Source: Escherichia coli
GTDB taxonomy: Bacteria; Pseudomonadota; Gammaproteobacteria; Enterobacterales; Enterobacteriaceae
DNA: 64,000 nucleotides
Assembly: GCF_016903815.1 (NCBI RefSeq)
Contig: NZ_CP069973.1
Reading direction: 5' to 3' (one strand)
Within the stretch, counting starts at the first letter, position 1. Every line of letters begins with the position of its first letter. Below, piece by piece: positions 43,674 through 44,721 of this stretch. The translations under genes and the position numbers were made by a program. Under the pieces are notes generated by a model. The model was given only the letters and a program-made list of their open reading frames with translations, was not told the DNA's origin and ran no database searches.

Positions 43674-43679
43674 TCTTTT

Positions 43680-43700
43680 ATGCCGGGCGATGCCCGGCAT
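43680..43700 (+). terminator. hairpin after rhlE
   Basis: ATGCCGGGC-GA-TGCCCGGCAT perfect stem followed by CTTC. Confidence 0.5.
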
Positions 43701-43829
43701 CTTCGCAACAAGTCTCTTTCTACCGCAATTTTATCCTGGGCAATTTACGATCAAGGTGCTGCAATTTATTATTAATTGCTCTATCTTTAATTATAAATTG
43801 CATGCTGTATACAAAGAGGTTAGCGCATT

Positions 43830-44270
43830 ATGGCACCAGAAACGATCGATCACTCAACCTTACATAAACTGGTTGAATCTGGCGTAGTGGATGCAGCACA
43901 CGTTATTGGCACCCAGGGAGGCTGGTCGTTGACCGTGAAATACGGCCACACTGAACGGCCTCTTGCAGCACAACGCAGTCGGCAAATCCGCCTGTTCAAA
44001 CGGCTGGAAACGGTTGTCAACTACCTGAAAGATGTTGGTATTGCCCGGTTTGAAGTCGACGCCTCTAATTACGACCCGGACGGTCAGAAGAAAACGACCC
44101 GACCAGACAGGGCTGAGGCATTAAAACGAGCTCATGAAGCTGCCGCGTATGATGCCTGGTTTCGAGAGCAGGTGCAGGCCGCCATTGACGATCCACGCCC
44201 GGCACTCTCTCATGAAGAGGCCAAAAGTCTATTTGCTGCCCGTAAAAAAGCCTTGCTGAAGGGGGATTAA
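43830..44270 (+). CDS. putative antitoxin with PaaA2/ParD-like C-terminal region and uncharacterised N-terminal domain (146 aa)
   Basis: AGAGG RBS upstream; C-terminal AWFREQVQAAIDDPRPALSHEEAKSLFAARKKALL resembles ParE-neutralising antitoxins (PaaA2-like, from memory); stop overlaps downstream start (TAATG). Confidence 0.7.
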   Translation: MAPETIDHSTLHKLVESGVVDAAHVIGTQGGWSLTVKYGHTERPLAAQRSRQIRLFKRLETVVNYLKDVGIARFEVDASNYDPDGQKKTTRPDRAEALKRAHEAAAYDAWFREQVQAAIDDPRPALSHEEAKSLFAARKKALLKGD

Positions 44271-44551
44271 TGCGTCTGGAATGGAAGCCAATGTCCCTGT
44301 CTGACAGGGAGCAAATCATGGAATACATCAGTAAAGATAATCCGCTAGCGGCAATAGCCCTTGATAATCAATTTGAAGCCATTGCGGAACAGGCCTGTGA
44401 ACGCCCGGAGATGTACCGGGCCGGACGAGTCGCTGGTACACATGAAGCCGTTGTCAGGCCGCATTATGTGCTTGTCTATCAAGTGGAGGGCGATACGCTC
44501 TCGGTACTGCGTGTTTTACATACCGCTCTGCAATGGCCGCCAGCGGAATAA
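44270..44551 (+). CDS. ParE/RelE-superfamily toxin-like protein (93 aa)
   Basis: Strong SD (AAGGGGGA) 5 nt upstream; sequence ...DREQIMEYISKDNPLAAIALDNQFEAIAEQ...GRVAGTHEAVVRPHYVLVYQVEGDTLSVLRVLHTALQWP has ParE family hallmarks. Confidence 0.8.
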   Translation: MRLEWKPMSLSDREQIMEYISKDNPLAAIALDNQFEAIAEQACERPEMYRAGRVAGTHEAVVRPHYVLVYQVEGDTLSVLRVLHTALQWPPAE

Positions 44552-44687
44552 GCTGATGTACAATGTCTTTTGCTGCACAATGATGTTTCTTCTGCCGCGA
44601 GAAAACTTCACATCCGGAAAACGTTATTGCGAGCCGCTTTCCAGAAACAGAAAAACCATTACCCCTGAAAACCGAAAAATGCCACAA

Positions 44688-44707
44688 TATTGGCTGTTTA
44701 TACAGTA
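44688..44707 (+). promoter_or_regulatory. LexA (SOS) box of dinG promoter
   Basis: TATTGGCTGTTTATACAGTA about 15 bp upstream of dinG ATG, matching the non-canonical dinG box as recalled. Confidence 0.6.
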
Positions 44708-44721
44708 TTTCAGGTTTTCTC

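Follow-up and report, generated by a model that had tools for sequence, protein, structure and literature searches.

The closest described relative of the locus analyzed here is the three-component toxin-antitoxin system paaR2-paaA2-parE2 of the Escherichia coli O157:H7 prophage CP-933P (PDB 3zbe, 5cw7, 5cze, 5czf), which includes the nearest solved kin of its toxin. The O157 antitoxin PaaA2 is a disordered protein of 63 amino acids without a DNA-binding domain, and transcription of the system is controlled by a separate CI-like regulator, PaaR2 (PMC8630535). Overexpression of O157 ParE2 induces the SOS response, and the target of this toxin is not known (PMC8630535). In two other systems with ParE-family toxins, parDE of plasmid RK2 and parDE2 of Vibrio cholerae, the toxin is neutralized by the C-terminal tail of the antitoxin ParD, the operon is autoregulated and ParD binds DNA by a ribbon-helix-helix N-terminus. 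Here, we describe a related two-gene cassette between rhlE and dinG in a stretch of 64,000 nucleotides of E. coli DNA (contig NZ_CP069973.1; the whole stretch is called the window, and coordinates refer to it unless stated otherwise). Our analysis indicates that the rhlE-dinG gap of Escherichia is likely to be a multi-allelic cargo slot, of which the window carries the toxin-antitoxin allele.

The cassette consists of two genes on the plus strand. The first (43830..44270), preceded by a Shine-Dalgarno sequence AAGAGG at 43814-43819 that is conserved in homologous cassettes, encodes an antitoxin of 146 amino acids, in which an N-terminal alpha/beta domain (approximately residues 5-80) is followed by a PaaA2-type toxin-binding C-terminus. 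The Pfam family PF21217 PaaA2 matched residues 104-130 with 40.9 bits (cut-off 27), and residues 83-139 aligned to residues 6-61 of the PaaA2 structure 3zbe with an E-value of 2e-4. The same PF28031 and PF21217 architecture was present in at least 900 homologues of the antitoxin, some of which are named 'antitoxin PaaA2 family protein'. The AlphaFold model of the antitoxin had a mean predicted local distance difference test (pLDDT) score of 81.6 and showed an alpha-beta-beta-beta-alpha-beta fold in the N-terminal domain, for which no recognized DNA-binding fold was matched. The second gene (44270..44551) encodes a toxin of 93 amino acids that was placed in the ParE/RelE superfamily by Pfam, NCBIfam and PDB matches. 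The stop codon of the antitoxin gene and the ATG of the toxin gene overlap in the sequence TAATG at 44268-44272, and the toxin is predicted to be translationally coupled to the antitoxin. Because the toxin matches the ParE family and the antitoxin carries the PaaA2 motif, the cassette is classified as a predicted two-gene type II toxin-antitoxin module of the PaaA2/ParE kind.

Family membership suggests, by analogy, that the toxin would be a gyrase or topoisomerase poison. It could instead be a RelE/StbE-type ribosome-dependent mRNA interferase, in which case there would be no link to DNA damage or SOS. In line with this, the toxin matched TIGR02385 RelE_StbE with 38.5 bits, above the cut-off of 27.9, and its RefSeq names vary between RelE/ParE and RelE/StbE. 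However, the match to the Pfam family PF05016 ParE_toxin was stronger (51.9 bits, cut-off 23), the closest solved relative was ParE2 of E. coli O157 (5cw7_B, E-value 1.7e-6) with only ParE2 chains found, the partner protein has the PaaA2 ParE-binding motif, and it is O157 ParE2 that induces SOS when overexpressed (PMC8630535). An mRNA interferase is thus considered unlikely, and the toxin is treated below as a member of the ParE type.

The cassette shares with paaR2-paaA2-parE2 the antitoxin-then-toxin gene order and the C-terminal antitoxin region (residues 83-139) that aligns with the ParE2-binding region of PaaA2. In contrast to that system, it has two genes, an antitoxin of 146 amino acids with a folded N-terminal domain and a palindrome over its own promoter, and it is chromosomal and plasmid-related, whereas the O157 system resides in a prophage. 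A third, PaaR-type regulator gene was absent: the 921-bp cassette segment holds two substantial open reading frames (ORFs), and the upstream neighbor is rhlE. The cassette is accordingly not assigned to the three-component subtype. Like the parDE systems, it combines a ParE-family toxin with an antitoxin whose C-terminal tail would neutralize it, in an operon predicted to be autoregulated, but the N-terminal fold of its antitoxin showed no resemblance to the ribbon-helix-helix of ParD. The same two-gene architecture and operator motif were found in plasmid homologues of Klebsiella, Salmonella (IncF) and Yersinia, annotated as 'hypothetical protein + RelE/ParE family toxin', with the same protein lengths (antitoxin 146, toxin 93-94 amino acids) and 70-73% nucleotide identity over window positions 43760-44543. 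The plasmid copies sit among accessory genes and recombinases, whereas the cassette occupies a single chromosomal site between core genes; the cassette itself appears to be plasmid-derived. A role as an anti-phage defense system was rejected, as PADLOC gave no match to the cassette. A phage origin was likewise rejected, with no DNA match in 50,697 phage records and only weak PHROG profile matches that fit the prophage PaaA2/ParE2 families. No structured RNA or small RNA was found in the region by Rfam at E-values up to 1.

The ends of the cassette were mapped by blastn and base-by-base comparison with K-12. The left flank is rhlE (42309..43673, plus strand), a 454-codon ORF for an ATP-dependent RNA helicase that is named rhlE in the 100% identical strain 7/2. 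Its stop codon is followed by a 28-bp left module (43674..43701), which according to the junction alignments is common to the ybiA and cassette alleles, holds a hairpin and equals that of K-12 except for one loop base. Homology to K-12 ends at 43701, just past this hairpin, and picks up again at 44623, a position that in K-12 lies 20 nt upstream of the start codon of ybiA; from there the identity is 99.6% into dinG. The cassette-specific segment between these points (43702..44622, 921 bp) occupies the place of 706 bp in K-12, made up of a repetitive extragenic palindromic (REP) element and ybiA. On the right, a 4-bp module GTTA (44623..44626), present at the junctions of the ybiA and cassette alleles but not of a third allele carrying espX2, is followed by the 95-bp dinG regulatory block (44627..44721), which starts with TTGCGAGCC and is abutted by all three cargo types. 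The 99 bp upstream of the dinG ATG at 44722 (44623-44721) are identical to K-12, LexA box included.

The first-pass annotation had placed ybiA at this position in K-12 and had the cassette reading toward dinG, and both statements were confirmed. In K-12 ybiA lies on the minus strand, the window and K-12 are not collinear here, and the two co-directional ORFs of the cassette are on the plus strand, toward dinG. The rhlE-ybiA-dinG-ybiB arrangement of K-12, in which the REP element is accompanied by a NADAR N-glycosidase gene transcribed away from dinG, differs from the window, where the cassette is transcribed toward a frameshifted dinG. Of the replaced segment, which had been estimated at roughly 43700-44680, the left limit holds (43701/43702), while the right limit lies about 57 bp further left, at 44622/44623. 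The short repeats that had been looked for at the junctions did not turn up by alignment and repeat search. No target-site duplication, terminal inverted repeat or microhomology beyond chance was detected at 43702 and 44622 by inverted-repeat search and K-12 junction comparison, and marks of mobile-element insertion were absent as well, with no recombinase ORF in the segment, no phage match and no flanking direct or inverted repeats at these two positions. The GTTA module could be the decayed stop context GTAA of the ancestral sequence, but a single 4-mer is no evidence for this. The last 200 bp of rhlE (43500-43701, with the Arg/Gly-rich tail) are 94.6% identical to K-12 and 91.5% to Nissle, against approximately 99.6% for the first ~180 bp of dinG. 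Haplotype divergence is thus evidently much older on the left side of the slot than on the right.

Among 5,426 complete E. coli genomes, the cassette was found in 324 (6%), once per genome and always on the chromosome. A query spanning rhlE, the cassette and dinG was covered in the same 324 genomes, and therefore all copies are located at the rhlE-dinG locus. The identity to the window was at least 99% for 236 copies and 95-99% for the remaining 88, most of the listed ones being at about 96%. The K-12-type ybiA segment was present in 3,429 genomes (~63%), and in 542 (~10%) the slot was filled by espX2, a type III secretion system effector gene co-directional with dinG. Nissle-type strains carry a ybiA remnant in the slot. 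The espX2 allele (strain 142, positions 1193-3995 of locus L004; also O157:H7 EDL933) is flush on both sides, reading CAGTAA, cargo and TTGCGAGCC, and TTGCGAG is repeated 18 bp upstream of the espX2-TTGCGAGCC junction. In strain EC6622 (L005, 2258-3238), the REP element that separates ybiA from the rhlE hairpin is interrupted by IS621.

In the three outgroups compared, rhlE lies directly next to dinG, with intergenic distances of 96 bp in Citrobacter, 192 bp in Klebsiella and 99 bp in Pseudescherichia vulneris. The 28-bp hairpin module is absent from these outgroups and from the espX2 allele. In Citrobacter, the rhlE TAA is immediately followed by TTGCGAGCC, which begins 96 nt upstream of the dinG ATG; the corresponding distance in the window, where this 9-mer begins at 44627, is 95 nt. 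We regard 44627-44721 as the probable positional counterpart of the entire rhlE-dinG intergenic region of the ancestor. Citrobacter (L038, 3405-3500) and P. vulneris (L041) have a canonical rhlE terminator at the position of the Escherichia block, which is itself terminator-less, and in Klebsiella (L039) no gene was seen between rhlE and dinG. Close YbiA homologues were confined to Escherichia, namely E. coli and E. marmotae, in the latter of which a 91% identical protein is encoded in the same slot by a ybiA allele with the same ends; the next homologues, at ~70%, are from planctomycetes. As the outgroups have an empty slot and close homologues occur only in Escherichia, ybiA appears not to be the ancestral occupant but cargo itself. 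The earlier statement that the cassette replaced ybiA therefore stands in part: compared with K-12, the window lacks the ybiA segment and has the cassette instead, but ybiA is itself an insert.

From these comparisons, the ancestral state would have been rhlE followed by about 100 bp of intergenic DNA with the dinG promoter and LexA operator, and in Escherichia unrelated cargos lie between the rhlE stop codon and this block. The ybiA and cassette alleles share the 28-bp left module and the GTTA on the right, and one of these cargos would therefore probably have replaced the interior of the other, after which the alleles would have spread by homologous recombination in the flanks. The sharing of these outer modules would also fit an order in which the cassette occupied the slot of Escherichia first and its interior was later replaced, in the lineage now dominant in E. 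coli, by ybiA, a NADAR gene gained by horizontal transfer. E. whittamii has the cassette, and the nearest YbiA relatives outside Escherichia are only ~70% identical, which agrees with such an order. On the other hand, ybiA is found in E. marmotae and in 63% of the complete E. coli genomes, no remnant of either cargo is left inside the other, and the two Escherichia outgroup species gave no polarity for the two cargos. We regard the cassette-first order as possible, though somewhat improbable. The K-12 allele may also be a relic of toxin-antitoxin-like cargo (ybiA, L002, 1506-1988), by analogy with its family: YbiA belongs to the NADAR family, some members of which are antitoxins to ADP-ribosyltransferase toxins (PMC11125620). 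The same study put ybiA in a LexA-controlled operon with dinG, rhlE and ybiB, although it lies on the opposite strand.

The age of the cassette was assessed by comparison with E. whittamii, which is collinear with the window over 40000-48268 and carries the cassette at the same junctions; these junctions were also found in the other E. coli cassette alleles. The antitoxin genes of E. whittamii and the window were 95.9% identical and the toxin genes 95.0%, compared with 91.5-94.4% for the flanking genes. The ratio of nonsynonymous to synonymous substitutions (dN/dS), where computable, was 0.03-0.16 for the two cassette genes (antitoxin 0.03-0.16, toxin 0.07-0.15). Since the junctions are the same in E. 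whittamii and the cassette has diverged to a similar extent as the core genes beside it, the cassette allele appears to be old, maintained by purifying selection and not the product of a recent event. In strain GF43, the cassette is next to a dinG gene whose protein is identical to that of K-12, which points to shuffling of the allele between backgrounds by homologous recombination. The GF43 antitoxin equals that of the window, and its toxin gene is 94.0% identical, with amino acid changes that are partly common with the other cassette class. The GF43 locus thus looks recombinant.

Chromosomal toxin-antitoxin modules are often without phenotype, and the cassette could accordingly be an inert remnant, that is, an inactive addiction module with no present function or transcriptional effect. 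The lack of a PADLOC defense-system match is consistent with this. Against it, both ORFs were intact in every copy inspected, and the dN/dS values of 0.03-0.16 were obtained across alleles up to 0.2 synonymous substitutions per site apart. Furthermore, the operator and the Shine-Dalgarno sequence are conserved, whereas the adjacent non-coding spacer has drifted to ~80% identity. An inert remnant is in our opinion very unlikely, and maintenance by purifying selection is the preferred explanation.

A consensus scan predicted a sigma-70-like promoter, TTTACG-17 nt-TATTAT with 9 of 12 matches, at 43744..43772 on the plus strand, from which transcription of the cassette would most likely start. The inverted-repeat search revealed a 19-bp palindrome, GCAATTTATTATTAATTGC (43761..43779), a candidate operator that overlaps the −10 hexamer. 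The hexamer is at the center of the palindrome, with TATAAT at the same place in the plasmid homologues. An extra candidate half-site, ATAAATTGCA (43793..43802), is conserved in homologous loci, a repeat search returned a further candidate half-site copy upstream, GCAATTTA (43740-43747), and the 16-nt arms 43760-43775 and 43787-43802 are 94% complementary. In 10 homologous cassettes (E. whittamii, Klebsiella, Salmonella and Yersinia plasmids, Erwinia, Pantoea, Serratia and Photorhabdus), the operator columns were invariant or nearly so, while the surrounding sequence diverged. In the allele of strain GF43, a 21-bp tandem duplication in the operator region (L007, ~3060-3110) adds an AATTGC half-site. 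At the sequence level, the conserved palindrome argues well for an operator, and thereby for probable autorepression of the cassette, in which the antitoxin or the toxin-antitoxin complex would bind the palindrome. With the −10 hexamer inside the conserved operator, low steady-state transcription of the cassette is predicted. LexA control of the cassette promoter was rejected, since 43700-43830 contains no LexA box, that is, no site with 6/8 core matches. A sequence resembling a LexA half-site, CTGTATAC at 43805-43812, lacks a second arm, and other alleles have CCGTATAC instead.

The hairpin downstream of rhlE, ATGCCGGGC-GAT-GCCCGGCAT (43680-43700), is a GC-rich perfect 9-bp inverted repeat, and the fold of 43660-43720 had a free energy of −20.9 kcal/mol (z −2.8). 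It lacks a U-tract, and the terminator rule fails for it both in the window and in K-12. The intact rhlE terminator of the first-pass annotation is therefore upheld as far as the hairpin is kept, but by the rule it is not a terminator. As the hairpin has no U-tract and was not flagged by the terminator scan, rhlE transcripts may also enter the cassette. The hairpin is single-copy in the window, and its interpretation as a repeated or mobile element was rejected, since it is unique there and its 'plasmid' matches are mislabeled chromosomal copies of rhlE.

Downstream of the toxin stop codon there is a fast-evolving, terminator-less spacer of 71 bp (44552..44622, plus strand), which in the alignment of cassette alleles showed 79-82% identity, as opposed to 94-100% in the adjacent blocks. 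The consensus scan found no intrinsic terminator, i.e., no GC-rich hairpin with a U-tract, on the plus strand of 44551-44722, and the fold of 44540-44725 (186 nt) was no more stable than shuffled sequences (z −0.63). This bears out the earlier claim that the stretch from 44551 to the dinG LexA box has no convincing intrinsic terminator. The absence carries weight, since the rule did detect strong terminators of rhlE in the outgroups Citrobacter, P. vulneris and Klebsiella, which served as positive controls. Three other cassette alleles had only a marginal 5-bp stem spanning the toxin stop codon, and neither the window nor E. whittamii had even that. Read-through from the cassette, and perhaps from rhlE as well, into dinG-ybiB is thus physically possible, with nothing in the sequence to forbid it. 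Given the lack of an intrinsic terminator after the toxin gene, transcripts that escape repression could cross the LexA operator into dinG-ybiB; their contribution would be small and independent of LexA, provided that neither Rho nor bound LexA halts them.

The LexA operator of dinG, TATTGGCTGTTTATACAGTA, was found exactly where it had been expected (44688..44707) and is intact, with the same sequence as in K-12 and in the published dinG SOS box; the dinG-ybiB transcript is UV-induced (PMC3009722). It was the only good consensus match in 43600-44800, with 15 of 20 positions. All E. coli slot alleles were 100% identical in the 99 bp upstream of dinG, E. whittamii was 99% identical there and E. 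marmotae 97%, and the sequence next to this block diverged by 6-20%. The constraint reaches beyond the LexA box by about 60 bp on its upstream side (TTGCGAGCCGCTTTCCAGAAACAGAAAAACCATTACCCC), where no Rfam match was obtained. No promoter for ybiA or for an antisense transcript was recognized in the conserved block on either strand of K-12 or the window, in a consensus scan that also misses the known dinG promoter and whose negatives say little.

A reading that builds on the first-pass annotation is that a mobile cassette recently replaced the resident ybiA and that, lacking a terminator, it drives or perturbs dinG and rewires its SOS promoter. The cassette is indeed co-oriented with dinG with no intrinsic terminator in between, it has plasmid relatives, and K-12 has ybiA at the position. 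Several results argue otherwise: the same junctions in another species with divergence like that of the flanks, the status of ybiA as an insert, the perfect conservation of the 99 bp upstream of dinG whatever the cargo, the operator over the −10 hexamer with its predicted low steady-state transcription, and the lack of a target duplication, inverted repeat or recombinase gene. A recent replacement with rewiring of dinG is for these reasons quite unlikely, and an old allele of a multi-allelic slot remains the better description of the cassette.

Some observations weigh against this description or parts of it. The homology of Citrobacter to the 95-bp block is clear only at the first 9-mer and the last ~45 bp. 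The synonymous divergence (dS) from E. whittamii was 0.17-0.20 for the cassette and thus below the 0.30 of rhlE, so introgression after speciation, rather than strict co-descent, is possible. Both the read-through and the autorepression are deduced from sequence, and the excess of C over G in 44590-44700 (ratio 1.5-1.8) is compatible with Rho-dependent termination. Any read-through is expected to be small, given that the cassette is predicted to repress itself and that bound LexA, as a roadblock, and Rho may each act against it. A more far-reaching idea is that the position just after the rhlE stop codon is a targeted integration hotspot and that the terminator-less cassette couples toxin-antitoxin derepression to LexA-independent transcription of dinG-ybiB. 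The hotspot part stems from the finding that three unrelated cargos, namely the orphan NADAR gene ybiA, the ParE-type cassette and espX2, all border on one and the same 9-mer, TTGCGAGCC; we give the idea as a whole only a slight chance. If the coupling were true, an SOS-inducing toxin, likely a topoisomerase poison, would reach a DNA-damage helicase operon by two routes.

The dinG gene of the window (44722..46873, plus strand) is frameshifted and split into the ORFs 44722-45813 and 45728-46873. By comparison with four other sequences, the +1 frameshift was located to an extra G at 45800-45802 (GGG instead of GG), leading to a stop at 45813, by which the protein is cut to 363 of its 716 residues. 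A 63-mer containing this insertion occurs unchanged in 51 complete E. coli genomes, including WCHEC96200, a strain of sequence type ST405 and phylogroup D (PMC5762679), and RefSeq labels dinG as 'frameshifted' in strains 7/2, WCHEC96200 and KY 1497. Because the 63-mer is shared by 51 genomes, dinG here is evidently a lineage-specific pseudogene and not a sequencing error. In three other E. coli cassette strains inspected, dinG was intact.

As a chromosomal member of a known toxin-antitoxin kind in a polymorphic slot, the cassette will not surprise a specialist. The analysis does, however, provide exact breakpoints for a common, undescribed polymorphism beside a textbook SOS gene: about 6% of complete E. 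coli genomes are without ybiA at this locus and have the cassette instead. It also presents ybiA, usually taken as a core K-12 gene of the 'dinG region', as apparent cargo in an ancestrally empty slot. Both the cassette slot and the dinG frameshift of 51 genomes matter for the use of this region as a marker and for studies of DinG and YbiA function. Finally, the cassette appears to be a natural two-gene kin of the unusual three-component PaaR2-PaaA2-ParE2 system, with an antitoxin that keeps an N-terminal domain and with a conserved candidate operator, and it is therefore relevant to a point raised in PMC8630535, the possible loss of a DNA-binding domain by the ancestor of PaaA2.

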